Shown here: positions 44,919 to 62,316 of the stretch, one piece after another
Position numbering within the stretch: position 1 is the stretch's first letter
Layout of the letters: each line of letters starts with the position of its first letter
From: a bacterium
Lineage (GTDB): Bacteria; Myxococcota; UBA727; JAUIJE01
Direction of reading: 5' to 3'
Length of the DNA: 64,000 nucleotides
Assembly (NCBI GenBank): GCA_030431455.1
Contig: JAUIJE010000002.1
Location: 129,294 to 193,293, forward strand
The notes under the pieces: generated by a model
Seen by the model: the letters and a program-made list of their open reading frames with translations, nothing else
Told to the model about the DNA's origin: nothing
Databases searched by the model: none
Made by a program: the position numbers and the translations under genes

Positions 44919-44949
44919 TTGACTCTATAGTTACTAGAGACTTTATCAT
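44919..44949 (+). promoter_or_regulatory. MerR-type promoter: TTGACT, a 19-bp spacer containing the imperfect dyad GACTCTA-N7-TAGAGAC, then TATCAT.
   Basis: Read directly: ttgactctatagttactagagactttatcat. The 19-bp spacing is the signature of MerR-activated promoters. The -10 overlaps the first ATG of the downstream gene, so that gene is likely leaderless and starts at ATG 44957. Confidence 0.5.
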
Positions 44950-45667: not shown

Positions 45668-46052
45668 CATTGCCACTTCCGCGGCCTGGTACGACGAGGC
45701 TTTGGGCTTCGCCACCATGTTCGCGTCCCCCGACGGGCGGATGGCGCACCTGCGCGGGCGCAAGTACCAGGACCTGATGCTCGTGCCCGCGGGCGAGGCC
45801 GACCCGAGCCCAGCGATGATGTTGTCGTTCGATGTCGACCCGGACCTGCACGCTCTGCACAAAAAGGCCAAAGCCGCGGCGACGGTGGGCCGGTCCCATG
45901 TGGCCGACCTCGCGTCCACCCCGTGGGGCACGCTGGAGATGACCGTCACCGATCCCGACGGACACACGTTTGTCTTCACCCAGCGGGATAAAAACCCCGA
46001 GGTCACCGCGCGCATGCGGGAGCAGTTCGCGAAAGACCGCGGTGAACGCTAA
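45573..46052 (+). CDS. Glyoxalase/bleomycin-resistance/VOC-family protein.
   Basis: RBS AAGGAGAAAGAAG. 159 aa with an approximately 2x beta-alpha-beta-beta-beta pattern. MFARLSCRDIATSAAWY is a typical first strand. Confidence 0.65.
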   Translation: MTQPMKEPPTLGHHKGFEVYPMPMFARLSCRDIATSAAWYDEALGFATMFASPDGRMAHLRGRKYQDLMLVPAGEADPSPAMMLSFDVDPDLHALHKKAKAAATVGRSHVADLASTPWGTLEMTVTDPDGHTFVFTQRDKNPEVTARMREQFAKDRGER

Positions 46053-49000
46053 GGACCCGGTCGCACCACCGCGCCCGCCGGGATGTGGGCGCCGTCGTCG
46101 ACGGTGGCGCCGGTGAGCACTTGGGCCCCGGCGCCAATCACCGCGTGCGAACCGATGGTGACGTCGTCGCCGATCTGCGCGGTCTCGTGCACGACGACGT
46201 TGTCTTTGATCACGGTGCGGGCGCCCACGCGCACGTGCGGGCAGAGCACCGAGCGAAAACCGAGCACGCTGTCCTGCCCCATCTTGCAGTCCAGTGACAC
46301 ATAGGCATTGGGCTGGACCTGGACCCCGTCGGCGAGTTCGGCGCGGCCGAGCAACAGTTTGCTCTGGCCCATGAGGTGGCCGGCCACGCTCGAGCCCGCG
46401 GCGAGCAGCACCCCGCGCCCGAGGTCGAGCAAGGCCGGGTCCAAAATCCACGCGTCGGTGGCGGTGCGCACAAAATACGACGTGCGCGCGCCGAGGGCGC
46501 GCAGCGCGAGGTAGCGCAAGAGGTTGCTGCCGAGGATGGTGCGGCGCCAGAGCGGCAGGTAGAGGATGCGCTGGGCCATGAGCCGCAGGCCCCAGGCGGT
46601 GGTGGTCTTGTGCGAGAGCGCATAGAGCCCGGGCGACACCGGGGGCAACAGCCGCACCGCGGCCCCGACGAGGAAAATCAAGACCACCAAAAAGAGCAGG
46701 TAGGCCACGGGCAATAGGGCATAGCCGATCGCGCTCGGCACCAACGCGGCCAGCCACTGCCAAGCCGAGCCCGCGGCCGCGGCCGCGCCCCCCGCGGTGA
46801 CGAAAAAGAGCACAAAGAACGCGAGGTCGGTGATCACCGCGCCCTTTTCGGGCGAGGCCGTCGCCCCCTCGTCGTTGAACAGCGGACGGTCGCCGGACAG
46901 GCGCACGACCGCGGGCGCCGCGCCGGCGTCGCCGAGGTGGGCCGCGAGCTGGCGGATGGTGGGGTGGTCCCAGGCCACGGTGATGTCGATGGGCCGGCCG
47001 ATGTGTTCTTCGAGCGCGGCCACGAACTGGACCGCGGCCACCGAGTCGAGGCCAAACGTGCTGAACACCGCGTCCGGGTCCACCTCGTCCGCGGGCCGCG
47101 ACAGGCGCTCGGCCACCCACCCGATCATAAACGGCTCGAGCCCACCCGCCGCCGGGGCCGACGCGGGCCCGACCGGGGCCGGGGCGGATGCGGGCCCTGC
47201 TGGCGCCGACGCGCGGGCCTTTTTCGGCAATGTGCGCAGGTCGGCCACGGTGGCTTGGTCGAGGTCGAACCCGGCGCTGTCGAGCCCGCGGTCTTCACAC
47301 AGTTGCGCGAGGTGAATCTCGTCAAACCCGAGAGCGGACAGCGGCTGGTCCGAGGAGATCGCCGACTGTGCATAGCCAAGCTCGGCCGCCAGCCAGGCCA
47401 AGAGCCCATCGTCGGCTTCGCGCGATTTTTCCGCCGAAGGCCCGGCCGGGCGGGGGGCGTCTCGTCGGTGGGCGATGTCGAACGCCCCCTGTTCGAACTG
47501 CTCGCGCGCGGCCAAATGGCGAATCTTGCCGCTGGTGGTGCGCGGCAAGGCCACGCGGCCGACCACCGCGAGCGCGTCGGGGGCAAAGCCACAGTCTTGC
47601 AGCAGGCGCGCCGCCACCGCGTCAAAGGCGCGCCCGGCGGTGTCCGCGTCCCACTTCGCTTCGATGAGCAGCGCGGCCCGGTCTTGGTCGTCCTCGACAA
47701 ACGAAAACGCACACACCTCGGTGAAGGGCGCGCCCTGCGCTTCGAGGGCGCGGCGCGCGCTGTGCTCGACGTCTTCGGCGGCGTGGTTTTTGCCGTGCAC
47801 GATGAGCACGTTTTTTTTGCGCCCCACGATGTAGAGCTGCCCGTCACACATCGCGCCCAGGTCTCCGGTGCGCAAATAGCCGTCGCCGTGGCCGTGCACG
47901 GTGCGGCCGAAGGTCTCCGCGCTCAGCTCCGGCTTGCCATAATAGCCGCGCGCGACGTTGGGCCCCCGGTAGTAGACCTCGCCCACGGTGCCGTCGGGCA
48001 CCGGGCGTTGCTCGTCGTCGGCCACCACCAGCACGCCCCCGGGGGCGACCAGCCCCGCCGAGACCGTGGTCCCGAGCGCCAATGCGTCTTTGCTCTTGGT
48101 GCGCGCGGTGCCGGGCGGGGCCGAGGACACAAACAGCGTGGCCTCGGCCATGCCGTAGCAGGGCAAAAACACGTCCGGCCGGAGCCCGGCGGGCGCGAAC
48201 TTCTGCACAAACTGCTCGAGGGTGTCGGCCCGCACGCGCTCGGCCCCGCAGATCGCCGATTGCCACGCGGACAGGTCGAGCTTTTGTACGTCCTCGTCGG
48301 CGATGCGGTCGACGCACAACTGGTACGCGAAGTTGGGCCCGGCGGTGACGCGGGCTTTGTATTTGGCGATCGCTTCGAGCCAGCGAAACGGCCGCCGCAA
48401 AAACTGCGTCGGGGTCATGAAATAAAACCGCGCGGGCAAGAACACCGACTGCAACACCATGCCGAGCAGGCCCATGTCATGGTAGGGCGGCAACCAGCCC
48501 GCGCCCGGCCTGGGCTCTTCCCAGTCGTCGAACGAGAAGCGGGCGCACATCATGTCCTGGTTCGCAAAGGCATTGCGGTGGGTGACCATCACCCCCTTGG
48601 GCGCGCCGGTGCTGCCCGAGGTGTATTGCAAAAACGCCACGTCATCCGGCGCCGGCGGGGGCGCCACGTAGGGCGCGCCGCTTTCGTCGAGCACCACCTT
48701 GGCCATCGCGTCGAGGGCGTGGGGAAAAGTGCCCAGCTTGGCGAGGAGCGCGGCATCGAGGCTGATGGCCCCCGCGCGCGCGTCCTGGGCGATGGAGAGC
48801 GCGGGGCTTTCCGCGTCAAGCCGGCCCCCCCGCGGGGGGTAGGCGGGCACCGGGACCTTGCCCGCGAGCAAGGTCCCGAAGAAGGCCACGATGAAGTCGA
48901 TGCCCGCTTCGTGCCAGAGCAGCACCCGCTCGGCGTCAGGGGCGGCGCGGTGCAGGGCCCCCGCGACCCGGGACGCGCGGTCGAGCAATTGGGCCAAGGT

Positions 49001-49120
49001 CACGTCCTCGGCGATGTCGAGCTTGCTGTCCAAGAACGAATAGGCGACGAAGTCTGGGTGGGTCTCGGCCCGCCAGACCAAGAGTTCGGACAATGTCGCT
49101 GGACGTTCGGGCTCGGTCAT
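46049..49120 (-). CDS. Tri-functional fusion: fatty-acyl-AMP ligase (FAAL), acyl carrier protein, transmembrane segment and left-handed beta-helix (hexapeptide) acyltransferase.
   Basis: ATG 49120. FAAL motifs FLQYTSGSTGAPKGVMVTH and YRTGDLG. ACP FSTFGLDSVAAVQF (phosphopantetheinyl Ser). Three hydrophobic helices (AFFVLFFVTAGGAAAAAG...LLPVAYLLFLVVLIFLVGAAV). C-terminal hexapeptide repeats ...IKDNVVVHETAQIGDDVTIGSHAVIGAGAQVLTGATV. Confidence 0.8.
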   Translation of the reverse strand: MTEPERPATLSELLVWRAETHPDFVAYSFLDSKLDIAEDVTLAQLLDRASRVAGALHRAAPDAERVLLWHEAGIDFIVAFFGTLLAGKVPVPAYPPRGGRLDAESPALSIAQDARAGAISLDAALLAKLGTFPHALDAMAKVVLDESGAPYVAPPPAPDDVAFLQYTSGSTGAPKGVMVTHRNAFANQDMMCARFSFDDWEEPRPGAGWLPPYHDMGLLGMVLQSVFLPARFYFMTPTQFLRRPFRWLEAIAKYKARVTAGPNFAYQLCVDRIADEDVQKLDLSAWQSAICGAERVRADTLEQFVQKFAPAGLRPDVFLPCYGMAEATLFVSSAPPGTARTKSKDALALGTTVSAGLVAPGGVLVVADDEQRPVPDGTVGEVYYRGPNVARGYYGKPELSAETFGRTVHGHGDGYLRTGDLGAMCDGQLYIVGRKKNVLIVHGKNHAAEDVEHSARRALEAQGAPFTEVCAFSFVEDDQDRAALLIEAKWDADTAGRAFDAVAARLLQDCGFAPDALAVVGRVALPRTTSGKIRHLAAREQFEQGAFDIAHRRDAPRPAGPSAEKSREADDGLLAWLAAELGYAQSAISSDQPLSALGFDEIHLAQLCEDRGLDSAGFDLDQATVADLRTLPKKARASAPAGPASAPAPVGPASAPAAGGLEPFMIGWVAERLSRPADEVDPDAVFSTFGLDSVAAVQFVAALEEHIGRPIDITVAWDHPTIRQLAAHLGDAGAAPAVVRLSGDRPLFNDEGATASPEKGAVITDLAFFVLFFVTAGGAAAAAGSAWQWLAALVPSAIGYALLPVAYLLFLVVLIFLVGAAVRLLPPVSPGLYALSHKTTTAWGLRLMAQRILYLPLWRRTILGSNLLRYLALRALGARTSYFVRTATDAWILDPALLDLGRGVLLAAGSSVAGHLMGQSKLLLGRAELADGVQVQPNAYVSLDCKMGQDSVLGFRSVLCPHVRVGARTVIKDNVVVHETAQIGDDVTIGSHAVIGAGAQVLTGATVDDGAHIPAGAVVRPGP

Positions 49121-50028
49121 GCGGCGCGCGAGAGCTGCGCGTACTTGTCGAGCACCGGCGCGGCGTGCCGGGTGCGGGCAAACGCCCGGTGGGCGAGCAC
49201 CGCGCCGAGCCGCGCGGGGCGGTCGTGGTCGGGCACCCGGGGGGCGGCGTCGCGGCCGAGGTGGCGCTTGGCCACGTCGTCGGCCCAGGCCAAATACGCG
49301 CCCGCGTCGAAGAACTTCTCGAGCAGCTCGTGGGCAAAAAAGCGCGTCGCGAGGTCGCGCTCGCCGTCGGGCAAGGCCAGTGCCGACAAGTACGCAGAGT
49401 CGGTCACGATGTGTTGGGCTTCTTCCCGGCGGTGACAGGCGTGGGCGGTGAGCCAGCAGGGCTGGACCGGCTCTTTCATGTCGAGCAGCAGGTGGTGCAC
49501 CCGGACGGTGGCCTCTTCGAAAAAGAGAATGTCGAGCCACACCAAATAGTGAAAAGCGGCGGGGGGGAGCTTGTCCCCTTCGCCGAGGGCGAAGCGGCGA
49601 TTGGACAGCGTCGAGGTCGCTTGGTGCAGCCGGGCGGCCCAGTCCTCGTGCTGCTGCGCGAGCTTTTTCTGGTACCGGTTGAAGAGGGTGATGTGTTTGC
49701 CCTCTTCTTTGACCAGCGCGTCGAGGGCGATGCTCGGCCGCACGCTCGATTGTTGCTCGGCCACGAACCGCAAAATCAGCTTCTCGAGTTCGACAAACTC
49801 GCGGCACAGAAGCGTGGCTGCTCCCCATTGCAGCTCTTGGTCGGCGGCGGGCACCGCGCGGAACGGCCCCGGATCGATGCCCGCTTCGCGCAACAACACA
49901 TCGGGCACGTAGCGGCCGGGGGCATCAAACGCGTCCCAGGCCACGTCCTGTTCGAGGTCGAAGCGATAGCCGACATCCCGCGCGTCGAGGCGCTCGATGG
50001 GGGCCAGGTGGGGGTACAGACCGCTCAC
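49117..50028 (-). CDS. Putative di-iron oxygenase (AurF/ferritin-like four-helix-bundle family).
   Basis: Paired E...H motifs (EEGKHITLF; EEAQHIV; HELLEKF). Its stop overlaps the FAAL-fusion start (ATGA), so it is co-translated with it. Confidence 0.45.
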   Translation of the reverse strand: MSGLYPHLAPIERLDARDVGYRFDLEQDVAWDAFDAPGRYVPDVLLREAGIDPGPFRAVPAADQELQWGAATLLCREFVELEKLILRFVAEQQSSVRPSIALDALVKEEGKHITLFNRYQKKLAQQHEDWAARLHQATSTLSNRRFALGEGDKLPPAAFHYLVWLDILFFEEATVRVHHLLLDMKEPVQPCWLTAHACHRREEAQHIVTDSAYLSALALPDGERDLATRFFAHELLEKFFDAGAYLAWADDVAKRHLGRDAAPRVPDHDRPARLGAVLAHRAFARTRHAAPVLDKYAQLSRAA

Positions 50029-50092: not shown

Positions 50093-51748
50093 GTGATCCC
50101 TCCGTCCCTTTTGCACACGCTCGGACAGGCTTCGCGCAAAAAAGAGGCCCAAGCCTTCATCCGCGATTGCGCGCAGCCGGACCTTGCCCAGCGCGCGCGG
50201 CTCGATTGGCTCCTGACCAACAACCAGGACACCGCGTTCGGCAAGCAGCACGGTTTTTCCGACATCCCTGACGCCCATGGCTATCGCGAGCGCGTGCCCC
50301 TCATGCGCCCGGCCGAGCTGCTGCCCTGGGTCGAGCGCCAAATGAAGGGCGAGCCCAACGTGCTCACCCGCGAAGACCCCGAGTACTTTGTGCGCACCAC
50401 CGGCTCGACCGGCGTGCCCAAACACGTGCCGATCACCCCCACCTACCGCACGGAGTTTCAGCGCACGGTGTTCTCGTCGGTGTGGCACATCTACCGCCGC
50501 TATCCCGCCGCGTTCAAAGGGCGCATCTTGTACTTCGTGGGCTCGCCCCAGCTCGACGTCACCGACGGGGGCGTGCCCATCGGGACCATGAGCGGCTACA
50601 ACTTTGTGAAGATGCCGGGGCTCGTGCGTGCGCTCTACGCCTGGCCGCCCGAGCTCTTTTCCGTCGCGGACCTGTCCACACGCAACTACATTGCCCTGCA
50701 CCTCGCGGCCACGTCCGGGGTCACGGTGATGGCGGGCATCTTTCCTGCCAGCGTGGTCTATCTGTTTCGCGACCTCGAAGAGCGCATCGAGCTGCTCGCC
50801 CACCACGTCAAAAAGGGCACCCTCCCTGACGAGCTCGTGCTCACCGACGCCCAGCGCGCGTTTTTTCAAAAACAGATTCGCCCCAGCAAAAAACACGGCG
50901 ACCGCCTCGCCCAAGCGGCCAAACAATCCCGGGGCGGCATCGTGCCCACCGTGCTCGACCAGCTCAAGCTCGCCTACTGCTGGACCACGTCGACGGCAGG
51001 CGCGTTTTTGCCCGAGCTGCGCGCCCACTTCGGTGACGAGATCATCATCCGCGACGCGATTTACTCGGCCTGCGAAGGGTGGTGCAACGTGCCCCTCGGC
51101 GAGCCCACCCCGGGCGGCCCCCTCGCGGTGCGGTCGCACTTTTTTGAGTTCATCCCCGAGGACAAGGCCGACGAGGACCAACCAGAGACATTGTTGGCCC
51201 AAGAGCTCGAGGTCGGCGAGCGCTACCTGATCGTGTTCTCCACCGCGGGGGGTGTCTACCGGTATCGTCTCGGGGACGTGGTCGAGGTCAGCTCGCGGTT
51301 TGAGCAGACCCCCGTCATCCACTTCGTGCGCAAGCTCGGCGCCGCCTGCAACCTGGTGGGCGAAAAACTCGAGGAGGTGCACGTGGCCCAGGCGGTGCGC
51401 GAGGTGTTCGGCGACGGGCTCACCTACTACGTGCTCGCCCCGCGCGCGGGCGACGTGCCCGGCTACGACCTTTACGTCGAGGGCGCATCCGACGGCGACT
51501 GGTCCGCGCGCACCGCCGCCATCGATGTGGCCCTCGGCAAAGCCGCCCCCGATTACGGGCGGCTCCGCCAAGGCCAAAGCCTCGGTCCGGTGCGCACCTT
51601 GGACGTGCCCGCGGGCACCTACCGCGCCGACCGGCAGCGGCTGAGCGATCTTGGCACCGCCGAGAGCCAGATCAAAACCGCGCACTTGGTCGACGACCAA
51701 GCGCGCGTGCCGGTGCTGGTCAAAGAACGCGCCGCGGTCCGCGCCTAA
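50093..51748 (+). CDS. GH3-family (auxin-responsive GH3-like) adenylate-forming acyl-acid amido synthetase.
   Basis: 551 aa. FVRTTGSTGVPKHVPIT is the ANL-superfamily P-loop. The length and the YRLGDVVEV, WSARTAAIDVAL regions fit bacterial GH3 proteins. Confidence 0.65.
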   Translation: MIPPSLLHTLGQASRKKEAQAFIRDCAQPDLAQRARLDWLLTNNQDTAFGKQHGFSDIPDAHGYRERVPLMRPAELLPWVERQMKGEPNVLTREDPEYFVRTTGSTGVPKHVPITPTYRTEFQRTVFSSVWHIYRRYPAAFKGRILYFVGSPQLDVTDGGVPIGTMSGYNFVKMPGLVRALYAWPPELFSVADLSTRNYIALHLAATSGVTVMAGIFPASVVYLFRDLEERIELLAHHVKKGTLPDELVLTDAQRAFFQKQIRPSKKHGDRLAQAAKQSRGGIVPTVLDQLKLAYCWTTSTAGAFLPELRAHFGDEIIIRDAIYSACEGWCNVPLGEPTPGGPLAVRSHFFEFIPEDKADEDQPETLLAQELEVGERYLIVFSTAGGVYRYRLGDVVEVSSRFEQTPVIHFVRKLGAACNLVGEKLEEVHVAQAVREVFGDGLTYYVLAPRAGDVPGYDLYVEGASDGDWSARTAAIDVALGKAAPDYGRLRQGQSLGPVRTLDVPAGTYRADRQRLSDLGTAESQIKTAHLVDDQARVPVLVKERAAVRA

Positions 51749-52329: not shown

Positions 52330-52464
52330 GTCCGCCTCCTGCCGGGCCAAACCGCTTGGTTTTCCGCCCGTTGTGCTCTATACCGACCATAGGTCGGTAA
52401 AGCCCTGGGGACAAGGAGATCTGCCCCCCTTGCTCAAATCCGAGACAATGCGGAGAGGACCGCG

Positions 52465-53127
52465 ATGGGACGGGTGCGCAAAAAACCGGAAGAACGCCGG
52501 GCCGAAATCGTGGACGCGGCTTTGACCCTGAGCGCGACCCGCGGGCTCCAGGACGTGAGCGTGGCCGACATCATCGCCACCGCGCAGGTGAGCAAGGGCG
52601 GCTTTTACCACCACTTCGCGTCCAAAGATGACGTGCTCCTGGCCGTGGTCGAGCGCCTCGCCGACGTGGCCCTGGCCAGCTTTGTGCTCGTGGCCCAAGA
52701 CCCCAAGCTGAGCGCCACCGAAAAGCTGCGCCGCATCCTGCACGACGGGCCCCGGCAAAAGCGCGCCGCCGTCGGTGACGAAGGGCTCGAAGCGGTGCGC
52801 CAGTCGCTCTTTTCCGACGAGGGGCTCGCGCTGCGCACGGCGTTGGTGCAGCAGACCATCAAAAAGACCGCGCCGCTTTTGCAGCGGGTGATCGACGAAG
52901 GGCGCAGCGACGGCAGCATGCCGCGCGCGGATGACGACGTGGCCCGCCGCATCTTGCTCTACGGCGCGGCCTTGACCAATGCCGCTGCGCTCGATCCGGG
53001 CGCGGACATGCGCGCGATGTTGACCGCCTACTGGCGCGACACCGCCCGGCTCTTGGGCATGGACGAGCACGCCCTCGACGACGAGGGCGCGCTCAGCGAC
53101 GCAGAGGACGCAACAGCTGCGCGATGA
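52465..53127 (+). CDS. TetR-family transcriptional regulator.
   Basis: RBS GGAGAGG. N-terminal HTH ...AEIVDAALTLSATRGLQDVSVADIIATAQVSKGGFYHHFASKDDVL. Confidence 0.85.
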   Translation: MGRVRKKPEERRAEIVDAALTLSATRGLQDVSVADIIATAQVSKGGFYHHFASKDDVLLAVVERLADVALASFVLVAQDPKLSATEKLRRILHDGPRQKRAAVGDEGLEAVRQSLFSDEGLALRTALVQQTIKKTAPLLQRVIDEGRSDGSMPRADDDVARRILLYGAALTNAAALDPGADMRAMLTAYWRDTARLLGMDEHALDDEGALSDAEDATAAR

Positions 53128-53950
53128 AGGTGCGGGGCGCAGGGTCGCTCACGCCCACGTCGAACGACCCCGTGTGCCAAGGCGCGCGCCAGGTGCCGAA
53201 CAACCGGTCCCAGACCACGAGGGCGGAGCCGAAGTTGGTGTCGGCGTGGGCGGGGTCTTTGCTGTGGTGGATGCGGTGGGACGCGGGCCCCATGAGCACG
53301 TGTTCGACCGGGCCGAGGCGAAAATCAATGTTGCTGTGATCGAGCTGGCCCACAAAGGTGTTGAGGGTGATGAACCAGAACACGACCTCGTCGGGCGCAC
53401 CCACCGCGACCAGGGGCAAAAACATGAACAGCGGCTGAAAGAACCGCTCGACCAGGTGCGAGCGCGAGGTCTTCCAGGCGCTCAAGCGGTCCACGTCGTG
53501 GTGCAGCTCGTGAAAACGCCAGAGCAGGGGCACGCGGTGGAGCAAACGGTGTTCGATGTAGCGGCCAAAGTCCGCCACCACGAAGACGAGCACCAGCTGC
53601 GCCCAAAACGGCCAGGTGAGCGGCCAGATGCCGCGGCCGGAGGTCGCGTCGAGCACCTGGCCGACGAGGAGCAGGCCCGCCCATTGGGCCACAAACGTGC
53701 CCGCCCGGGCGCCGCCCGCGGTGCCGAGCAACGCGTGGGCCGTGTCGTGCAGCATCTGACCGTCATTGCACAACCAGTCGCGGCGGTAGGGCAGCACGCG
53801 TTCGATGGCGATGAGGGTGCCGAACACCCCGAGGCTGACCACGAACAGGGCCAGGAAGGGGTCGATGAGGTCGCGCAGCCACATGGTCACGCAGGTGGCG
53901 AGCACGATGAGCACCCAAAATAGAGAATAGCGGACGACGAGACCGGCCAT
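53093..53950 (-). CDS. Fatty-acid hydroxylase / sterol-desaturase superfamily membrane di-iron enzyme.
   Basis: His boxes HRLLH, HELHH and HRIHH with 4 TM helices. Confidence 0.75.
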   Translation of the reverse strand: MAGLVVRYSLFWVLIVLATCVTMWLRDLIDPFLALFVVSLGVFGTLIAIERVLPYRRDWLCNDGQMLHDTAHALLGTAGGARAGTFVAQWAGLLLVGQVLDATSGRGIWPLTWPFWAQLVLVFVVADFGRYIEHRLLHRVPLLWRFHELHHDVDRLSAWKTSRSHLVERFFQPLFMFLPLVAVGAPDEVVFWFITLNTFVGQLDHSNIDFRLGPVEHVLMGPASHRIHHSKDPAHADTNFGSALVVWDRLFGTWRAPWHTGSFDVGVSDPAPRTFIAQLLRPLRR

Positions 53951-53953
53951 CGC

Positions 53954-55819
53954 TCAGCGCCGCAAACGGGTCAGGGCCCGGCCGAGCACCGACCGGGTGA
54001 GCACCACCCCGGCCTGCAGCCGGGTGGTGCGCTCGGGGCGCAGGGTGCCTTCGAGGTGTTTTTGCAGCGCGGCTTGGCGCTGGACCTTGCCCGACGAGGT
54101 CTTGGGGATGCTCCCGGGGGCGAGGGCCACGCAGGCGGCGTGCACCGAGAACCGTTCGTTGATCGCGGACTCGATGGCGCGACCGAGCGCGTCGTGTTCG
54201 TCCTCGGGGGTGCGGGTCTCGAAAAACACGTGCAGCTGCTCGTCCCCCGACACATTGTCGGACAGGCCCACCGCCACCGCGGTGCCTTTTTTGACCCCCG
54301 CTTGGTCGTTGACCAGGGCCTCGACCTCTTCGCCGCGGATGTTGCGGCCCCGCACCACGATGACGTTCTTCAGACGCCCGGTCACGAACAGCTCGCCCCC
54401 TTCGACAAAGCCGAGGTCGCCGGTGATGACCCAGCCGTCCTCGGTCACGGGCAGGTCCCCCGCGGTCACCGAGCTCAGCAGGTTGGGGCCGCCGGCTTGG
54501 ATGTGGCCGACCTCGCGCTCGTCGAGGATCGTGCCGTCATCGCCCACCACCCGCACCGCGGAGGTGGGCAACACCGGGCCACAGGACACGACCTCGACCC
54601 CGTCGGGATCGTCCTCCGCCACCCCCTCGTCGAGCCCGTCGCGGTTCACCCGGAGGGTACGCACCTTTTGCCCCGGCGCACACGCGCTCACCGCCACCGT
54701 GGCCTCGGCCAACCCGTAGGCGGGGGTAAACGCGTCGATGGAAAAGCCCGCGGGCCCAAACTTGTCGGCGAACTTGCGCAATGTATCTGCACAGATGAAC
54801 TCCGCGCCGTTGAGCATCATGCGCACCGAAGACAGGTCCAGGCTCTGCGCCTCCTCGTCGGAGATGCGCGCCACCGCGCGGGCGAACGCGAAGTTCGGCC
54901 CCATGGAGAACGTGGCCCGGGTCTCGGACATGGCGCGCAACCACACCATCGGATCGAGCATAAACGTCACCGGGGACATCAAGGTGAGCGGGAACTGCCC
55001 GAGCAGCGGACACATCAGCCCGCCCATCAACCCCATGTCATGGTAAAGCGGCACCCAGCACACCATCTTGTCCTCGGGCCCGACCCCGACCATGCGGCAG
55101 AGCCCATAGACATTGGCGATGACCGCCCGCTGGGAGATCTCCACCCCCTTGGGATCGGACGTCGACCCCGAGGTGAACTGCACAAACGCAATGTCGCTGG
55201 GCAAGACGTCCACCTGGGGCGTGCGCGGGGTCACCGCGTCGGCGGACAGGCCCCGCACCCAGCGCACGGTGGGCGCGGACAGCGCCACCTCCCCGAGCAC
55301 CGAGGTCAGCCGGGGGTCGGCCACGAGCATGGCCGCGTCGCAGGAGCGCGCGATGTGGCCGATGCGGGCCAAGCCTTGCTGCAGCTGGGCCAAGGCGGGC
55401 GGCGGGTAGGCGGGCACGGGCACGCCCCCGGCGAGCTGCACCCCAAAAAAGCCGATCACAAACTCGTGCGAGGTGGGCAGCACCAGCACCACGCGTTCGT
55501 GCTTTTTCAGGCCCGAAGCCCGCAGCTCGGCGGCGAAGCCGGCGGCGCGTTCGAGCAGGGCGCGGTAGCTCAGGAAGGTCTCGTCCTCGCCGTCTTCGCT
55601 GAGCACGGTGATGCCGATGTCGTCCCGCGCGCCGGCCGCGACCGCGGCCTCGAGCATGGTGGGGTGCGGCCAGCGGTCGTCGCGCGCACACACCAAACAC
55701 GCGCGGCGTCCGCGGCGATCGTCGATCAAGGGCGCGCGCTGCTCGATCCGCACGGGCGTGGGGCGGGCCGCACCCTGGGCGCGGGGCGCGGCGTCTGCGG
55801 GGGCGGAGACCGATTCCAT
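53954..55819 (-). CDS. Fatty-acyl-AMP ligase (FAAL, FadD32-like).
   Basis: FVQFTSGSTSDPKGVEISQ, YHDMGL, ITGDLG, KTSSGKVQR. The start is uncertain: ATG 55819, internal ATG 55657 (MLEAAV...) or a GTG. Confidence 0.8.
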   Translation of the reverse strand: MESVSAPADAAPRAQGAARPTPVRIEQRAPLIDDRRGRRACLVCARDDRWPHPTMLEAAVAAGARDDIGITVLSEDGEDETFLSYRALLERAAGFAAELRASGLKKHERVVLVLPTSHEFVIGFFGVQLAGGVPVPAYPPPALAQLQQGLARIGHIARSCDAAMLVADPRLTSVLGEVALSAPTVRWVRGLSADAVTPRTPQVDVLPSDIAFVQFTSGSTSDPKGVEISQRAVIANVYGLCRMVGVGPEDKMVCWVPLYHDMGLMGGLMCPLLGQFPLTLMSPVTFMLDPMVWLRAMSETRATFSMGPNFAFARAVARISDEEAQSLDLSSVRMMLNGAEFICADTLRKFADKFGPAGFSIDAFTPAYGLAEATVAVSACAPGQKVRTLRVNRDGLDEGVAEDDPDGVEVVSCGPVLPTSAVRVVGDDGTILDEREVGHIQAGGPNLLSSVTAGDLPVTEDGWVITGDLGFVEGGELFVTGRLKNVIVVRGRNIRGEEVEALVNDQAGVKKGTAVAVGLSDNVSGDEQLHVFFETRTPEDEHDALGRAIESAINERFSVHAACVALAPGSIPKTSSGKVQRQAALQKHLEGTLRPERTTRLQAGVVLTRSVLGRALTRLRR

Positions 55820-55852: not shown

Positions 55853-57226
55853 TCAATGCCCTCCGTCCAGGGTGGCCAGCGCGGCCGCCAAGGCTGGGCG
55901 GAGGTCGCGTTCGTCGACGACCACATCGAGGTAGCCGTGTTGCGCGGCCTGGGCCAGGGGCGAACGCCCATCGACGGTGGCGTCCCCTTTGATCTGGTCC
56001 TGGGCGGGCTGGCCCATGCCCACCACCTGGGCGGTGGGCAGGCCGATGCGGTGCTGGGCGGAATAGGACAGCACCGTGCCCCCGCCGACGCTGCGGCGGA
56101 GGATGACGCTCACGTGCGGGACCGCAGCATCGGCGAACGCGCAGACCACGCTCGCCCCCGCGTGCAGGATGCCGCCTTGCTCCTGGTCGAGCCCCGGCAA
56201 AAAGCCGGGCACGTCGACGAGGGAGACGAGGGGCAGGCCGAAGCGGTCCGCGCGCCGGATGTGCCGCGCGAGCTTGTGCGACGCGGTCACGTCGAGGGCG
56301 CCGGCCTGGTGCAGGGACTGGTTGGCGAAGAAGGCCACGCCCCGGCCCGCGAGCCGGGCAAAGCCGACCACGAGGCTGCGGCCATAGTCCGGCTCGAACC
56401 GCACCACGCTCCCGTCGTCGAACAGCCCGGTGATGACCTTTTGCACGTCAAAGCCTTGGCGCAACGACGCGGGCACCAGGCCCCCCAAGGTCGTGGCCGG
56501 CGCCTTCGCGGCCGCGGGGGTGCGCAGGTCGATCAGGGTGCGCACAAGGGCGATGCCCGCCGCCTCGTCGTCGACCACCGCTTGCACCGCGCCGGTGTAG
56601 GCCGCGTGCATGGCCGGGCCCCCGAGCTCGTCGAGGTCGACCTGTTGCCCCCGGGCCTGGGCGGTGACGGTGGGCCCGGTCAAGAAGAGATGGCTTTGCT
56701 CGTCGACCATCACCAGCACGTCGGTGAGCACCGCGGCGTAGGCGGCGGCGCCCCCGCACAGGCCACATGCCAATGTCACTTGAGGCACGCGGTGTTTGGC
56801 CCGGGCCACCGCTTCGGTCCACTGGGGGTTGCCGAGCACCGCGGGCACCCCGTCTTTGACCCGCGCCCCCTGAGAATCCATCAGCGCGATCACCGGCCAG
56901 CCCGCGGCGGTGGCCTGCTCGACGAGGCGGGCGGTCTTCTCCGCCCCCGCGCGCGTCACCGCGCCGCGGTCCACCGTCCCGTCGTGGGCATACACCGCGA
57001 CGCGCTGGGCCCCGATGCGCCCCACGCCGCACACCACGCCCTCCCCGCCGTCGAGGTAGCGTTGCCGCTCGACGAATGTGTCTGCATCGAGCAGCGCATC
57101 GATGCGCGCCCGCGGCCCGCCCCGGCCCATCCGGGCGTGGCGGGTGCGCAACACCTCGTCGCCCGCCGCGGCGAGCTCCTGCTCGAGAGCGGCGAGGTCG
57201 GCGGCGGGATCGCGCGGCTCGCTCAC
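55853..57226 (-). CDS. Carboxyltransferase (AccD/PccB-like beta subunit of acyl-CoA carboxylase).
   Basis: Two carboxyl-transferase half-domains (…GGEGVVCGVGRIG…, …ALDVTASHKLARHIRRADRFGLPLVSLVDVPGFLPG…). The GTG start at 57226 overlaps the upstream ACP stop (GTGA). The upstream ORF extension is low-complexity. Confidence 0.7.
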   Translation of the reverse strand: MSEPRDPAADLAALEQELAAAGDEVLRTRHARMGRGGPRARIDALLDADTFVERQRYLDGGEGVVCGVGRIGAQRVAVYAHDGTVDRGAVTRAGAEKTARLVEQATAAGWPVIALMDSQGARVKDGVPAVLGNPQWTEAVARAKHRVPQVTLACGLCGGAAAYAAVLTDVLVMVDEQSHLFLTGPTVTAQARGQQVDLDELGGPAMHAAYTGAVQAVVDDEAAGIALVRTLIDLRTPAAAKAPATTLGGLVPASLRQGFDVQKVITGLFDDGSVVRFEPDYGRSLVVGFARLAGRGVAFFANQSLHQAGALDVTASHKLARHIRRADRFGLPLVSLVDVPGFLPGLDQEQGGILHAGASVVCAFADAAVPHVSVILRRSVGGGTVLSYSAQHRIGLPTAQVVGMGQPAQDQIKGDATVDGRSPLAQAAQHGYLDVVVDERDLRPALAAALATLDGGH

Positions 57227-57477
57227 GCCGCGGACTCGCTGCGCCGGGCCTGGATGAACGCCACCAGGTCCTTGACCGTGTCGAGGTCGCGGTAATCGTG
57301 CAGCTTGGCCTTGTAACCGAACCGCTTGTGCACAAAGAACACAAAGTCCACCACGTCGAGCGAGTCGAGCCGCAGGTCGCGCACAAAGGACGCCTCCGGC
57401 GTGACCTGGTCGGGCTGGGCCCGGAAGTTTTGCACCAGGATGTCGCGGACAGCGTCGAGAATCTCTTGGTCGGTCAC
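57223..57477 (-). CDS. Acyl carrier protein.
   Basis: 84 aa from GTG 57477 (GGAG 9 nt upstream). DLRLDSLDVVDFVF is the phosphopantetheine attachment motif. It is embedded as the tail of a junk track ORF. Confidence 0.65.
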   Translation of the reverse strand: MTDQEILDAVRDILVQNFRAQPDQVTPEASFVRDLRLDSLDVVDFVFFVHKRFGYKAKLHDYRDLDTVKDLVAFIQARRSESAA

Positions 57478-57491: not shown

Positions 57492-58514
57492 TCAGGGCGC
57501 GTCCCCCACGCGCCACAAGGCTGCGGCGCAGGCGTAGCCCGCGCCCGCGGCGAGCAGTAGCACAACATCCCCGGCTTGTACGCGGCCGGCGCGGCGGGCC
57601 CGGTCGAGGGCGATCAACACCGACCCCGACGAGGTGTTGCCCACGGTCTCGATGCAGGAAAAGACTTTGTCGTCGTCGAGCCCGGCCAGCGCGGCCACCC
57701 GGCGCAGGATGCGCCCGTTGGCCTGGTGCGGGACCACCAGCGACACCGCGGCTTTGTCGACGCCCGCCCCGTCGAGGATGCGCGCGGCCGCGTCGGCCAT
57801 GCCCTCGGTGGCGGACATGTACACATCGAGCCCGTCGACCATGCGCAAATGCTGCTCGCCCGCGGCGAGGCGTTCGGCGGTGAGCGGCCGGCGCGACCCG
57901 CCGCCGACGATGCCGATCTTGTCCCGTCCCCGGCTGTCCAAAAACGCCGCGGTGGCGAGCAGGCCGCCCGCGTCCGGGCCCGGCCCGAGCAAAAGCGCGC
58001 CCGCCCCGTCCGCGAACAAGGGCGCGGTGCCCACGTCGGTCACGTCCAGCACCCGCGAACGGATGTCCGCGCCGACGACGAGCACGACTTCGCCCGCGGT
58101 GAGCACGTGGCGCGCGGCGGTGTCGAGGGCATAAAGCGACCCGGCGCAGGCGGCGGCCACGTCGTGGGCGGGGCATTCGAGGTCGAGCCCGAGGCCCGCG
58201 TGCACGAAGCTCGCGGTCGAGGGCACGGGCTGGTCGGGCGAGGTCGTGGACACGATCAACCGGTCGATGCCGGCCGCGGACAGGCCCGCGTCGTCGAGAC
58301 ACGCCTTCGCCGCGGCGATGGCCAAATCCGAGGTGGCCACGTCGTCGGGCGCGATGTGCCGCGAGACGATGCCGGTCTTTTTCACGATGTCGTCGGCGGT
58401 GGTGTCACACCCCGCGGCGATGACCGCGGCGTTGTCGCGCACAGGATCCGGCAGATGGTGCCCGGTGCCGAGGATGTGCACGCGGGGGCCCGGGGGAAAG
58501 ACAAACACGCTCAT
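57492..58514 (-). CDS. fabH: 3-oxoacyl-ACP synthase III (KAS III / FabH).
   Basis: Cys-His-Asn triad contexts AAACAGSLYAL, VVPHQANGRI and GNTSSGS. The ATG at 58514 overlaps the upstream ACP stop (ATGA). Confidence 0.85.
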   Translation of the reverse strand: MSVFVFPPGPRVHILGTGHHLPDPVRDNAAVIAAGCDTTADDIVKKTGIVSRHIAPDDVATSDLAIAAAKACLDDAGLSAAGIDRLIVSTTSPDQPVPSTASFVHAGLGLDLECPAHDVAAACAGSLYALDTAARHVLTAGEVVLVVGADIRSRVLDVTDVGTAPLFADGAGALLLGPGPDAGGLLATAAFLDSRGRDKIGIVGGGSRRPLTAERLAAGEQHLRMVDGLDVYMSATEGMADAAARILDGAGVDKAAVSLVVPHQANGRILRRVAALAGLDDDKVFSCIETVGNTSSGSVLIALDRARRAGRVQAGDVVLLLAAGAGYACAAALWRVGDAP

Positions 58515-58726
58515 GCGGTTTTGTTCACCAAGGCACAAAGTCCCTGCACCGTGAGCGGCCGGGCCGCGGCCACGTCGGCCGCGCGCAACGTCACCGCGAG
58601 ACCCTCTTCGAGGGTCTCGATGAGCACGACCTCGTCGAACGAGTCGAGCTCGAGGGGCGCGTCATCGGCCGCGGGCAATGCCACGTGGGCGCGCAACAGC
58701 TGGCGCAACGATTCAGGGGTGCTCAC
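58511..58726 (-). CDS. Second small carrier protein (ACP/PCP-like).
   Basis: 71 aa with LELDSFDEVVLIETLEE, a Ser-containing DSx motif in helix II. Confidence 0.55.
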   Translation of the reverse strand: MSTPESLRQLLRAHVALPAADDAPLELDSFDEVVLIETLEEGLAVTLRAADVAAARPLTVQGLCALVNKTA

Positions 58727-59981
58727 CGTCGGACGGTCCTTTCAGCGCGGCCAGGCGATCGACCTTGCCCGAGCCGAGTGTGGGCAGCTCACGCCAAAAA
58801 CAAAAGGCCCGCGGGCGCATCGCCCCCGAAAGCTGCGCACGCACCTTCGCGATGACTTCGTCCGGGTCGCGGCGGGTGGCGATCGCGGCCTTCACGACCT
58901 GGCCCAGCCGGGCCGACGGCATGGGCCCCACCACCGCCGCGTCGATCCCGGGCACTTGCAACAGCGCATCTTCCACCGCCACCGGCGAGACGCGCACCCC
59001 GCCGGTGTTGATCACCGCGTCAGCGCGACCCTGGATGATCACGCGGCCCTCGTCATCGATGGCACCCACATCGCCGGTGGGCAAACGCCCTTCGTGGGTC
59101 GCTACCGTGGCCACGCCCTGGCCCCACTCGATGGTGCCCGACATCGCCCCGGGGGTCATCGCCCACAACTTGCCGTCCTCGACGACCATCTCCACCCCCG
59201 GCACGGGTGGACCCACGAGTCCGGGCACATCCGTCACCCCGTCGTCGCGCCAGGTGCAGAGCCGTGGCCCGGCTTCGGTGCAGCCATATTGGGTATAGCG
59301 CGCGCTGTTCGGCATCACCGTCCGCCACCGCTTCCACAGCGCCGCGTCCACCCGCGCCCCCGCCGACGCCACCCAAGCCGGGGCGACGGCGCCGTCGTCG
59401 ATGAGGTCGAGCAACATCGGCAGCTGGGACGGCACCAACTGCACGCCATCGGGCCGCGCGGCGAGAACCCCGCGGAGCCTGAGCAGGGCGGTGCGCCCGG
59501 TGGGCGCGACAAACGTGCCCCCTGCGATGATGGTCCACAGCAACTGGCCCACCAGTCCGTAGATGTGGTGCATCGGGCTCAGCCCGGCCATTCGACCGGG
59601 CGCGGGCAATACTTTGGAAATGGCGGCTAGGTTGTGCCGCACCGAGCGCCCCGACAACACTACCTGTCGAGGGGCCCCGGTGCTCCCTGACGACGCGACC
59701 ACCAGCGCCGCGCTCGGAAAATGTTCCTGCATCAAGAGCTCGGTCGCTGCATTCGGCGCGGTCACGGTGGGGCCCGGCACGATCACCGCACGCCCTTGCC
59801 GCCACCACGAGAGACAGTGCACCAGCACCCCTGCGGGGTTGCCGTCGTCGGGCCAGGGCACATCGCGTGCGGCCCGGTGCAGCAAAGCCACGCCGGTGGT
59901 GCTTTGTTTGCCCCGCACCAGCCGTGGTCGGTCGTCGTCTTCGAGCGCCCGGGCAAACGCTTGGTACAGCGCGCGGCTCAT
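58713..59981 (-). CDS. Stand-alone adenylate-forming enzyme (AMP-dependent synthetase/ligase, DltA/OleC-like size).
   Basis: VVASSGSTGAPRQVVLS P-loop, YGCTEAG, LPTGDVG, LGSGKVDR. Confidence 0.75.
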   Translation of the reverse strand: MSRALYQAFARALEDDDRPRLVRGKQSTTGVALLHRAARDVPWPDDGNPAGVLVHCLSWWRQGRAVIVPGPTVTAPNAATELLMQEHFPSAALVVASSGSTGAPRQVVLSGRSVRHNLAAISKVLPAPGRMAGLSPMHHIYGLVGQLLWTIIAGGTFVAPTGRTALLRLRGVLAARPDGVQLVPSQLPMLLDLIDDGAVAPAWVASAGARVDAALWKRWRTVMPNSARYTQYGCTEAGPRLCTWRDDGVTDVPGLVGPPVPGVEMVVEDGKLWAMTPGAMSGTIEWGQGVATVATHEGRLPTGDVGAIDDEGRVIIQGRADAVINTGGVRVSPVAVEDALLQVPGIDAAVVGPMPSARLGQVVKAAIATRRDPDEVIAKVRAQLSGAMRPRAFCFWRELPTLGSGKVDRLAALKGPSDGEHP

Positions 59982-61009
59982 GGGCGAAGCACCATCGCGG
60001 CCCCGGTCACGCCCCCGCCCACCGCGCAGAGCAACACGCGGCCTTTGGCGTCGAGGCGCCCGTCGCGCCGGGCCTCCGAGAGCGCGTAGAGCACCCCCGC
60101 GGCGCCGATGTTGGCGTGTTGGTGCACGGTGCTGACGCGGGGAACGTGCGCGAGGGCCACGTCGGTCATGACCTGCTGCACAAACCCCGCGCTGGTCTGG
60201 TGGGGCACGACCAGGTCAATGCCGCCCGGGGCCTTTTCCCGTGCGGCGGTGATGCATTGGGCGTAGAGGCCGCGCGCGCCGTCAGCGAACGCCCCCTCGT
60301 CGCCGGCCAAGCGGTATTCGCCCGCGGCGATGGCGTCGGCGGTGGGCGGCATCGGCCCCTTGGTGCCCACCGCGTCGGACAGGCCCTGCAGCGTGGTGGC
60401 CGCGAACGCCTCGATGGTGCCGGGGCCCGGGGTGAGCACCACCGCGGCGGCCCCGTCGGCGAGGTGGAGCGCGGCGAGCTTTTTGCCGGTGGGCAACACC
60501 CGCGAAAACGTGTCGCCGGCGACGACGAGCACACGCTTCGCCCCGGCCGCGATCCACTGCGCCCCGGTGAACACCGCGAGCAGGCCCCCCGCGCACCCGC
60601 TGCGCACGTCGAAGGCACAGCCGGCCGCGCCCAGGCGATGCGCGAGCACCGAGGCGGTGGGGGTGGTGAACCGGGCCGGGCTCGACGTGGCCACGATCAA
60701 AGCGTCGAGCGCGGCGGGGTCGGTCTGGGCGTCGGCCAAGGCGGCGTCGGCCGCGCCCGCGAGCAGGTCGAGGATGGTGACGTCCGCCCGCGCGGCGTAC
60801 GGCGGGGCCACAAAATGATGCTGCACCAGCCCGTGTTCGTCCTCGAGGGACTCGGCCACAAACGCGCGGTGCTCGTCGGAGGTGCCGTGGCCGATGTGGG
60901 CGAGCAGCGCCCGGTTGTCCATCGCCACCGGGCCCAGGCAGGTGCCGAGCCCCGCGAGCTGCAGGCCGGGCACCGGGCCGAGGGCAGACAGGCGGTTCGT
61001 TGCGTTCAC
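59978..61009 (-). CDS. Second KAS III-like condensing enzyme (FabH/OleA-like thiolase fold) with a variant active-site context.
   Basis: DVRSGCAGG (Cys), VPHQTS (His), HQHANIG. Its stop overlaps the adenylase start (ATGA). Confidence 0.7.
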   Translation of the reverse strand: MNATNRLSALGPVPGLQLAGLGTCLGPVAMDNRALLAHIGHGTSDEHRAFVAESLEDEHGLVQHHFVAPPYAARADVTILDLLAGAADAALADAQTDPAALDALIVATSSPARFTTPTASVLAHRLGAAGCAFDVRSGCAGGLLAVFTGAQWIAAGAKRVLVVAGDTFSRVLPTGKKLAALHLADGAAAVVLTPGPGTIEAFAATTLQGLSDAVGTKGPMPPTADAIAAGEYRLAGDEGAFADGARGLYAQCITAAREKAPGGIDLVVPHQTSAGFVQQVMTDVALAHVPRVSTVHQHANIGAAGVLYALSEARRDGRLDAKGRVLLCAVGGGVTGAAMVLRP

Positions 61010-61566: not shown

Positions 61567-62316
61567 ATGACCTTGTCACCCGGCGCGATGGTGGTGATCG
61601 GCGGCTCCACCGGGGCCGGTCGCGCGGTGGCGACGTCGTTCGCGAAGGCGGGGGGCACGGTCTATGCCGCCGGCCGCGACGAGGACCGGCTCGCGTCGCT
61701 GCAAAAAGAGCTCGACGACCGTGGCCAGACCTTCGCCCTCGACGTGACCACCCCGGACGCGTTTTTGTTCGTGGGCGCGCTGCCCGACGCGCCGGCGGTG
61801 ACCGGCGCGGTCTACGCCGCGGCCCACCGGTATGTGCCTGCACGCTTACACCACATGGGCGACGACGAGCTGTTGCAGGTGCTGTCCACAGATTTGCTCG
61901 GGGCCGAACGGTTCGCGCGGGCCGTCCTGCCCCGGCTCATGACCCAGCCCACGTCGAGCCTGGTGTTCGTCGGGTCGCTGGCCGCGCAGGTGGGCATGAA
62001 GGGGGGCGCGGCCTATGCCGCGGCCAAGGCCGGGCTCGAGGGGCTCGCGCGCAACCTCGCCCTCGAGTACGGCCAGTACGGCGTGCGCTGCAACGTGGTG
62101 CGGCCCGGCTTCATCGACGGGGCGCGCTTCGACGCGCGCACCGCCGACAGCGACGCCCGGCGCGAAAAGCTGCTCGCCCAGACCACCCTCGGCACGTTGG
62201 TGAGCGAACAAGACGTGGCCGACCTCGTGCTGTTTTTATGTTCGGACAAGGCCCGCGCCATCACCGGCGCGGTGGTGGACATCACCGCCGGGGCCCACCT
62301 GAACCGCCTTTGGTGA
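61567..62316 (+). CDS. Short-chain dehydrogenase/reductase (SDR; FabG/OleD-like).
   Basis: VIGGSTGAGRAVA (glycine-rich NAD(P) loop), S...YAAAK catalytic YxxxK, PGFIDG. Confidence 0.8.
   Translation: MTLSPGAMVVIGGSTGAGRAVATSFAKAGGTVYAAGRDEDRLASLQKELDDRGQTFALDVTTPDAFLFVGALPDAPAVTGAVYAAAHRYVPARLHHMGDDELLQVLSTDLLGAERFARAVLPRLMTQPTSSLVFVGSLAAQVGMKGGAAYAAAKAGLEGLARNLALEYGQYGVRCNVVRPGFIDGARFDARTADSDARREKLLAQTTLGTLVSEQDVADLVLFLCSDKARAITGAVVDITAGAHLNRLW

Follow-up and report, generated by a model that had tools for sequence, protein, structure and literature searches.

A myxococcotal fusion that joins a fatty acyl-AMP ligase, an acyl carrier protein and a Pls/PosA-like membrane beta-helix unit: a candidate self-loading membrane acyltransferase

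Within a 64,000-nt stretch of contig JAUIJE010000002.1 from a bacterium of the phylum Myxococcota (the whole stretch is referred to below as the window), a gene on the minus strand (46049..49120) encodes a protein of 1023 amino acids (aa) that combines, in a single chain, an adenylation domain of the fatty acyl-AMP ligase (FAAL) type, a degenerate carrier-like domain, an acyl carrier protein (ACP) domain, a transmembrane (TM) helical hairpin and a left-handed beta-helix (LbH). This gene and its product are hereafter called the target, and residue numbers refer to the full-length protein. Here we argue, from sequence comparisons and structural models, that the target would be a membrane-anchored acyltransferase that activates a free fatty acid, loads it onto its own carrier and passes it on at the membrane. 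The general mechanism of acyl transfer, stated without naming the acceptor, appears likely; to the complete chain of reactions, in which the acceptor would be a 3-hydroxyacyl amino acid made by a GH3-family enzyme encoded in the same gene cluster, we assign a probability of about 0.45. As judged from sequence and from models, the hairpin, the linker that follows it and the LbH constitute one homology unit, which is homologous to one C-terminal repeat of Pls/PosA. Both this relationship and the conserved GH3 cluster had been overlooked in a preliminary description of the gene.

The reading frame is intact. From the ATG at 49120 to the stop codon at 46049-46051, the minus strand carries 1023 codons without a single internal stop, and the G+C content at third codon positions (GC3) stays between 0.77 and 0.95 in each 60-codon block, the domain junctions included (0.89 overall). 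The DNA of the target is identical in an independent Logan assembly, and an identical protein is also found in NCBI. The second assembly, the uniform GC3 and the uninterrupted frame together exclude a hidden stop, a frameshift or a chimeric assembly, so that the claim of a single polypeptide made in the preliminary description is borne out. The start codon chosen there is also right. A longer version of the open reading frame, with a start at 49828, was considered and rejected: its 236 added codons have a GC3 of 0.43, as compared to 0.85 for the overlapping upstream gene read in its own frame and 0.89 for the target, which shows that the added stretch is non-coding in that frame and, therefore, that the ATG at 49120 is the correct start. 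The GC content is 69%, and the nearest FAAL matches are myxobacterial, at merely 35-40% identity.

The adenylation domain (aa 1-548, 47477..49120; this and all other parts of the target lie on the minus strand) is matched by the Pfam AMP-binding model over aa 16-394 (E 1e-60) and by the FAAL models of NCBIfam with E values of 1e-99 to 1e-90 and 300-333 bits, under the strict cut-offs of these models (e.g., 333 bits for PRK05850 and 322 bits for PRK09192, both under cut-off). The closest solved structures are all FAALs, namely, 7r7f (E 3e-97), 3kxw, FadD23, FadD32, FadD28 and 3pbk, and the amino-acid adenylation model TIGR01733 fits far less well (151 bits versus a cut-off of 317). By these sequence comparisons, the domain belongs to the FAAL clade.

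The acyl carrier domain (aa ~655-735, 46916..47158) is matched by Pfam PP-binding over aa 669-729 (E 5e-18), resembles the N-terminal ACP region of Pks13 (E 2e-10) and contains a GLDS motif at 690-693, with Ser693 (codon 47042-47044) as the site of the phosphopantetheine arm. The presence of this serine in orthologues had been named beforehand as the point on which the proposal should be tested; it is retained in all three other fused homologues identified here (P0121, P0124 and P0184). Between the adenylation domain and the ACP, there is a degenerate carrier-like domain (aa ~566-633, 47222..47425) in which GFDE, with Glu601, takes the place of GxDS. Its match to PP-binding is weak (E 0.031), but BLASTP aligns it with the true ACP, GFDE opposite GLDS (E 6e-4), and the full-length AlphaFold2 (AF2) model gives it helices at 566-581, 594-597, 601-610 and 625-630 (pLDDT 73-86), a four-helix pattern as in the true ACP; Glu601 takes the position that Ser693 has there. 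This degenerate domain, which is absent from P0121 and P0124, may serve in docking or be a remnant of evolution.

The membrane part of the target (aa 757-823, 46652..46852) is a helical hairpin of two spans with a short connecting helix. Hydropathy analysis delineates two segments, 759-786 and 790-832; an AF2 model of aa 741-1023 (pLDDT 94.9, pTM 0.90), for which 46 family sequences were used, contains two long helices, 757-792 and 803-823, with a helix of 4-6 residues between them (pLDDT 95-99), and the full-length model concurs. The loop of the hairpin carries no charged residues, and Asp765, in the first membrane helix, is near-invariant in the family. Thus, of the order FAAL-ACP-membrane-hexapeptide given in the preliminary description, the domains and their succession stand; its three-helix membrane segment has to be replaced by a two-span hairpin, and the degenerate carrier has to be added. 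With two predicted spans, the ACP and the LbH would be on the same side of the membrane, as the proposed chemistry requires. The hairpin is followed by a family-specific linker (aa 824-880, 46481..46651) that consists of a PG motif (Gly831) with a strand and of three helices bearing Trp843, Arg851 and Arg869; in the numbering of the AF2 fragment, the strand is E91-94 and the helical part H98-135. No Pfam family covers aa 741-880 of the target. In the C-terminal LbH domain (aa 881-1023, 46049..46480), Pfam Hexapep matches the last ~120 residues, with the best stretch at 962-996 (E 1e-14), so that the AMP-binding, PP-binding and Hexapep domains expected from the preliminary reading were all recovered. 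In the AF2 model, the first turns of the LbH are broken by a two-strand hairpin that begins at His915 (codon 46376-46378).

The architecture of this C-terminal part leads to Pls/PosA, the poly-amino-acid synthetases to which the epsilon-poly-L-lysine and delta-poly-L-ornithine synthetases belong. The NCBIfam model TIGR02353 matches the target with E 2.6e-12 and 45.9 bits versus a cut-off of 423, over profile positions 238-433 only, and the match spans the hairpin, the linker and the first LbH turns. Among five stand-alone proteins of the same family that were tested against NCBIfam, TIGR02353 was the top match for four (E 1e-14 to 1e-20) and ranked fifth for the remaining one (E 1e-11). The elements of the AF2 model of aa 741-1023 are, one by one, those described for the modelled unit of PosA, i.e., two paired helices, a strand, core helices and an LbH into which two strands are inserted (PMC10522769). 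The likeness extends to the whole protein: in both cases, an adenylation domain, a carrier and a membrane module made of helix pair, linker and LbH follow in this order, the carrier with its phosphopantetheine serine (Ser693 in the target) lies between the adenylation and membrane domains, and neither a condensation nor a thioesterase domain is present. The differences are equally clear. The C-terminal domain of Pls/PosA is ~700 aa long and comprises three pairs of membrane helices, six in all, and three LbH in tandem, whereas the target has one pair and one LbH; whereas Pls/PosA adenylates a cationic amino acid, the adenylation domain of the target is of the FAAL type. The target is located in a fatty-acid/GH3 gene cluster, and a single acyl transfer would be expected rather than polymerisation. 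Hence, judging from sequence, the target falls outside the Pls/PosA family, yet it possesses the otherwise unique module and the domain order of that family. In Pls/PosA, the terminal domain joins a carrier-bound acyl group to a free acceptor (PMC10522769).

The same unit defines a family, hitherto unannotated, that became visible only upon an exhaustive HMMER search of 1.84 billion representatives, which yielded 126 proteins at E <= 1e-10. With membership defined as recognition by a hairpin-plus-linker profile among the top 150 representatives, the family comprises 132 of these, namely, 125 stand-alone proteins (<=340 aa, typically about 270 aa), four FAAL-ACP fusions and three proteins with other extensions. 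Besides the target, the fusions comprise P0121 (1017 aa), P0124 (943 aa) and P0184 (1556 aa, with an additional acyl-CoA-dehydrogenase domain); thus, the order FAAL-ACP-hairpin-LbH is found again in three distant homologues, one of them from an organism with 33% GC. In P0186 (L008, 722-2803), the hairpin-LbH unit is N-terminal and is followed by a C-terminal extension of ~450 aa without a Pfam match; downstream of its gene, there are two radical-SAM genes, one of them B12-binding, and a B12/radical-SAM gene is also present in L002, the locus of P0121. Source annotations of the members are generic ("acetyltransferase-like isoleucine patch superfamily enzyme"). Word-index protein searches missed the family: the full-length target retrieved only FAAL-ACP parts of nonribosomal peptide synthetase (NRPS) and AONS proteins at 33-42% identity, the family profile A1 returned LpxD, LpxA and GlmU, and the hairpin-plus-linker profile A4 returned three proteins without recovering the family. 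A scan of genome contigs with the single target protein gave one irrelevant LbH match.

Conservation within the family centers on a few residues. Among the 132 members, Gly831 is kept in 130, His915 in 127, Asp894 in 126 and Trp843 in 122, and Arg869, Arg851 and Asp765 are also highly conserved. A gamma-carbonic-anhydrase reading of the LbH was considered and rejected, as the family has one conserved His and not the three zinc-binding His residues; therefore, acyltransferase chemistry is favored over a role like that of gamma-carbonic anhydrases or a purely structural one. The LbH acyltransferases LpxA and LpxD of lipid A synthesis share with the target an LbH of hexapeptide repeats and, presumably, the dependence on acyl-ACP. 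However, these enzymes are soluble, use a free ACP and possess UDP-sugar-binding domains, whereas the LbH of the target is tethered to the hairpin and linker, and its loader and ACP belong to the same chain; neither PF04613 nor PF13720, the sugar-nucleotide domain types of LpxD (where the domain is N-terminal) and LpxA (where it is C-terminal and helical), matched the target or the stand-alone members. In LpxA and LpxD, the catalytic His, His125 and His239, respectively, is found at the interface between the trimer subunits; His915 stands at the start of the family-specific two-strand insertion.

The general course of the reaction can be envisaged as follows. The FAAL-type domain, as its family membership suggests, would adenylate a free fatty acid, and the acyl group would then move to the phosphopantetheine attached to Ser693 of the protein's own ACP. 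The two-span hairpin would fix the protein in the inner membrane and bring the chain back to the cytoplasm, with the ACP, according to the predicted topology, facing the C-terminal domain. The ACP would then offer the thioester to a site of the LbH module close to the membrane. This module probably works as a homotrimer, in which, by homology and conservation, His915 would activate a nucleophile that attacks the acyl-S-ACP thioester, and Gly831, Asp894 and the conserved Arg and Trp residues of the linker may assist. The idea of activation, carriage and transfer united at the membrane, put forward in the preliminary description, gains support on the sequence level from the recurring fusions, from ACP genes that abut stand-alone members of the family and from the homology to Pls/PosA.

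When considering the nature of the acceptor, the gene neighborhood is important. The cluster to which the target belongs spans about 46.0 to 63.4 kb of the window. Immediately upstream of the target, and overlapping its start by an ATGA, lies a di-iron-oxygenase-like gene (303 aa, 49117..50028, minus strand). It is followed, on the plus strand and divergently from this two-gene operon across a 64-bp spacer, by the gene of a GH3-family acyl-acid amido synthetase (50093..51748), in which the N, M and C domains of Pfam GH3 are recognized. The protein matches the NCBIfam model OlsH with E 4e-22 and 78 bits versus a cut-off of 620 and so is not an OlsH equivalog; homologues with 41-53% identity adjoin TM-LbH genes (i.e., genes for hairpin-plus-LbH units) in loci L003, L007 and L010 of the comparison described below. 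Between GH3 and a TetR gene lies a gene for a small hydrophobic protein of 194-201 aa (51745-52329, minus strand) that matches no family and lacks homologues in the related loci. TetR is followed by an OlsE-like membrane hydroxylase (53093..53950, minus strand; Pfam FA_hydroxylase; NCBIfam OlsE E 7e-61, 206 bits versus a cut-off of 475).

The remainder of the cluster consists largely of genes for fatty-acid enzymes and carriers. On the minus strand, these are a second, stand-alone FAAL of 621 aa (53954..55819; NCBIfam PRK09192, 396 bits), with a homologue of 39% identity in L010; an mmdA-like carboxyltransferase of 457 aa (55853..57226; Pfam Carboxyl_trans E 3e-83), kept in L003, L009 and L010, with a Carboxyl_trans gene called in L014 as well; a stand-alone ACP of 84 aa with an LDSL motif (57223..57477; Pfam PP-binding E 2e-8); a FabH-like KASIII with Cys-His-Asn motifs (57492..58514; NCBIfam PRK09352, 272 bits, above cut-off); a small ACP-like protein of 71 aa with an ELDSF motif (58511..58726), the counterparts of which in L010 and L013 show weak PP-binding matches; a short adenylating enzyme of the ANL superfamily (422 aa, 58713..59981; Pfam AMP-binding and AMP-binding_C), kept in five other loci; and a second FabH-like KASIII (59978..61009; Pfam ACP_syn_III and ACP_syn_III_C; NCBIfam 134 bits). 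The last two genes encode a short-chain dehydrogenase/reductase (SDR; 61567..62316, plus strand; tblastn 41% identity to the SDR of L003) and an MFS transporter (62282..63433, minus strand; in tblastn, 42% identity across 381 aa with the MFS gene located after the stand-alone TM-LbH gene of L003). Altogether, the window's version of the cluster has four enzymes that form adenylates and three carriers, be they domains or separate proteins. On the other side of the target, a glyoxalase-family gene (45636-46052, plus strand) is convergent with it, the 3' ends overlapping by four bases, and is preceded by the gene of a PhyH-type dioxygenase (44948-45667, plus strand). For the small membrane protein, TetR, glyoxalase and PhyH genes, tblastn found no counterpart in eight other loci.

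The di-iron protein, which is ferritin-like and appears translationally coupled to the target, has EGKH at 109 and EAQH at 203 and, ~30 residues before either of them, a Glu, i.e., two E-x(~30)-E-x-x-H motifs, and shows weak similarity to AurF (Pfam AurF E 1e-5, below cut-off) and to symerythrin; it has neither an NCBIfam match nor a close solved relative. The preliminary description viewed it as a possible modifier of the substrate. The gene is real and does overlap the target; however, no counterpart was found by tblastn in the eight other loci, and no AurF-family gene was called in three further ones, so that there is no support for a general role in modifying the substrate.

Twelve loci with usable flanks, the window included, were compared, and the tblastn comparison covered eight of the others. 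A GH3 gene is present in 8 of the 12 loci, in four cases (L010, L011, L012, L013) in the same operon as the TM-LbH gene, and, in L009, L011 and L012, the gene right after the stand-alone TM-LbH gene encodes an ACP. An SDR is encoded in 10 loci, the cassette of KASIII, ANL and small ACP in eight, a carboxyltransferase in five, and an MFS or MMPL exporter in eight. An OlsE-like hydroxylase (185-206 bits versus a cut-off of 475) is found in the window, L003 and L014, adjoining GH3 in the latter two and located ~1.3 kb from it in the window. The target fusion reads as a Rosetta-stone joining of an adenylating enzyme, an ACP and a TM-LbH that are encoded by separate genes elsewhere. The conserved cluster (~50093-63433 in the window; also L003, L007, L009, L010, L013 and L014), with its GH3, OlsE-like enzyme, FAAL, carboxyltransferase, two or three small ACPs, two KASIII, ANL, SDR and exporter, is apparently undescribed. 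By its gene content, it probably makes an amino-acid-containing lipid. The presence of the conserved GH3 cluster therefore narrows the choice of acceptor, which in the preliminary description had extended to a lipid, an amino acid or a sugar.

Two further observations concern individual loci. P0184 (L006, 5101-9771; 33% GC), with the architecture FAAL / acyl-CoA-dehydrogenase / ACP / hairpin / LbH, is encoded beside genes for a Wzy-type protein and a GT4 glycosyltransferase, a setting which suggests that its acceptor differs and is possibly a surface glycan or a glycolipid. Methyltransferases encoded beside family members in L011 (9177-10004) and L009 (15284-15883) were considered as OlsG-like enzymes, and this was rejected given their resemblance to carboxyl O-methyltransferases (BioC-like, ICMT-like); their sequences hint that, in some clusters, a free carboxylate of the product is methylated.

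GH3 enzymes link a carboxylic acid, once adenylated, to an amino acid through an amide bond. One such enzyme, OlsH, makes N-acyl ornithine from a free (3-hydroxy) fatty acid (PMC12493201; reviewed in PMC12971839), and the second fatty acid is then added by OlsI, an unrelated O-acyltransferase of the alpha/beta-hydrolase type, the acyl donor of which is unidentified (PMC12493201). The target cluster resembles this system in that the GH3 gene adjoins that of a putative membrane acyltransferase and an OlsE-like hydroxylase is also encoded nearby, an arrangement that fits N-acylation followed by O-acylation. It differs in that the GH3 of the window is distant from OlsH, the TM-LbH gene occupies the neighboring position and its product, with its FAAL-ACP, would take over the part of OlsI, and the cluster contains KASIII, ANL, ACP and carboxyltransferase genes which the olsHGI operon lacks. 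No alpha/beta-hydrolase of the OlsI kind was found among the cluster genes scanned. Because the clusters have no OlsI-like gene, yet do have TM-LbH, ACP and SDR, we propose a route in which acylation by the LbH follows that by GH3. As the neighborhood suggests, KASIII, SDR, ACP, carboxyltransferase and the second FAAL would build a 3-hydroxy fatty acid, possibly 2-alkylated; GH3, like OlsH with ornithine, would couple this acid to an amino acid; next, the LbH module would esterify the 3-hydroxyl with the ACP-bound "piggyback" fatty acid; and the OlsE-like enzyme might hydroxylate the product, with the MFS or MMPL protein moving it. The expected product would be an acyloxyacyl amino lipid (ornithine-lipid-like) or a lipoamino acid. 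For the two KASIII together with the ANL, carboxyltransferase and SDR, one possibility is a head-to-head condensation of the OleABCD/beta-lactone or mycolate type. The cluster recalls the FadD32-Pks13 system of mycolic acid condensation, where a FAAL likewise loads an ACP; the target cluster, too, contains a carboxyltransferase, condensing enzymes and a reductase, and MmpL-type exporters are encoded in related loci. However, it has neither a type I polyketide synthase nor thioesterase-mediated transfer, and condensation would be performed by KASIII, so that the likeness is one of logic only.

Several facts weigh against the complete chain of reactions that ends in O-acylation of a GH3 product. 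First, FAALs carry a specific insertion of ~20 aa between motifs A5 and A6 that blocks the use of coenzyme A (CoA). In the target, the spacer from A5 (YGMAE) to A6 (GEVYYRG), which lies in the region of aa 322-380 (47981-48157) where this insertion is sited, is 53 aa long, versus 68-71 aa in 9 of 11 other FAAL-clade domains measured (the remaining two have 47 and 110 aa), and aa 321-353 have a pLDDT below 50 in the full-length AF2 model. Judging from these sequence comparisons, the insertion seems shortened and largely lost; therefore, exclusion of CoA by the target cannot be assumed. Second, GH3 is missing from 4 of the 12 loci, among them two of the three other fused-protein loci (L002 and L006). 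Third, the GH3 proteins of the loci score only 68-84 bits with the OlsH model versus its cut-off of 620, and three give no match. Fourth, no thioesterase was identified by which the 3-hydroxy acid would be released for GH3. Finally, LbH enzymes and Pls also form amide bonds, so that the LbH may perform N-acylation instead of O-acylation.

This last point is the basis of the strongest alternative, in which the architecture and loading are the same but the LbH forms an amide, N-acylating a free amino acid, a polyamine or an amino sugar in the manner of Pls/PosA and LpxD; GH3 would then act on another carboxylate, e.g., to attach a second amino acid or to acylate some other amine. We regard this scheme as unlikely, given that a dedicated amide-forming enzyme, GH3, is already available in the cluster in two thirds of the loci, and that SDR and KASIII, which would create the 3-hydroxyl acceptor, accompany the module in most of them.

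Less likely still is an acceptor unrelated to GH3, namely, an envelope component such as a lysophospholipid (as with Aas), a precursor of a lipid A-like molecule or glycolipid, or a polysaccharide, with the cluster making only an unusual fatty acid. The model for this scheme would be Aas (2-acyl-glycerophosphoethanolamine acyltransferase/acyl-ACP synthetase), an inner-membrane protein that, similarly to what is proposed for the target, activates a free fatty acid with ATP, loads ACP and has a membrane lipid as acceptor; the AMP-binding part of the target matches the Aas model (E 5e-25), but Aas has an N-terminal PlsC-type acyltransferase and a separate ACP, whereas the target has a C-terminal LbH and a built-in ACP. 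The scheme would account for the two fused homologues without a nearby GH3, and for their neighbors: P0184 adjoins Wzy and GT4 genes, and P0121 adjoins MFS, KASIII, radical-SAM and MMPL genes. On the other hand, the association with GH3 in eight loci, often overlapping or operonic, would be hard to explain otherwise than by a joint function, and the target has no sugar-nucleotide-binding domain of the LpxA/LpxD type.

The polymerase domain to which the module is homologous adds carrier-bound monomers to a free chain (PMC10522769), and this brings up an iterative module, in which the FAAL would load a hydroxy fatty acid, such as the KASIII and SDR of the cluster can make, and the LbH trimer would produce an oligo-ester (estolide-like) lipid; this seems improbable because GH3 and the three other adenylating or carrier pairs of the cluster point to a defined multi-part lipid. 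Finally, the notion that the fusion arose as an artefact of assembly or annotation, or that the LbH is a non-catalytic scaffold like the gamma-carbonic-anhydrase-like subunits of complex I, which are among the fold matches and exemplify the structural use of LbH in some complexes, can be practically dismissed in view of the identical DNA in an independent assembly, the uniform GC3, the lack of a stop, the fusion in three distant homologues, and the one near-invariant His instead of three zinc-binding ones.

Taken together, the single acyl transfer proposed for the target, its Pls/PosA-like module and the recurrent GH3 neighborhood suggest a broader picture, which is possible, if doubtful, at present. 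The hairpin-linker-LbH unit would represent a widespread, unannotated class of carrier-protein-dependent membrane acyltransferases, of which the Pls/PosA polymerase domain would be a triplicated, specialized derivative; the single units would add the second, piggyback acyl group in a GH3-dependent pathway that would be the fourth leading to acyloxyacyl amino lipids, and the target would be a rare form that has its own loader and ACP. A literature search retrieved no paper on a FAAL-ACP-LbH fusion or on single-unit relatives of Pls, and nothing for TIGR02353 or for a cryo-EM structure of Pls; along with the lack of a Pfam family over aa 741-880, this agrees with the earlier statement that such fusions are essentially uncharacterised.

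For the Pls-type C-terminal domain, only AlphaFold and RoseTTAFold models have been discussed (PMC10522769), and we found no PDB entry that covers more than the bare beta-helix of the C-terminal module. A single-unit relative of ~270 aa, or the fused target itself, offers a far simpler object for structural and mutational work on this domain. The role of most bacterial GH3 enzymes is unknown, according to the authors who described the GH3-dependent ornithine-lipid pathway (PMC12493201); the cluster of GH3, TM-LbH, ACP and SDR genes, which occurs in many uncultured high-GC bacteria, is a concrete candidate for a new pathway to lipoamino acids or amino lipids.

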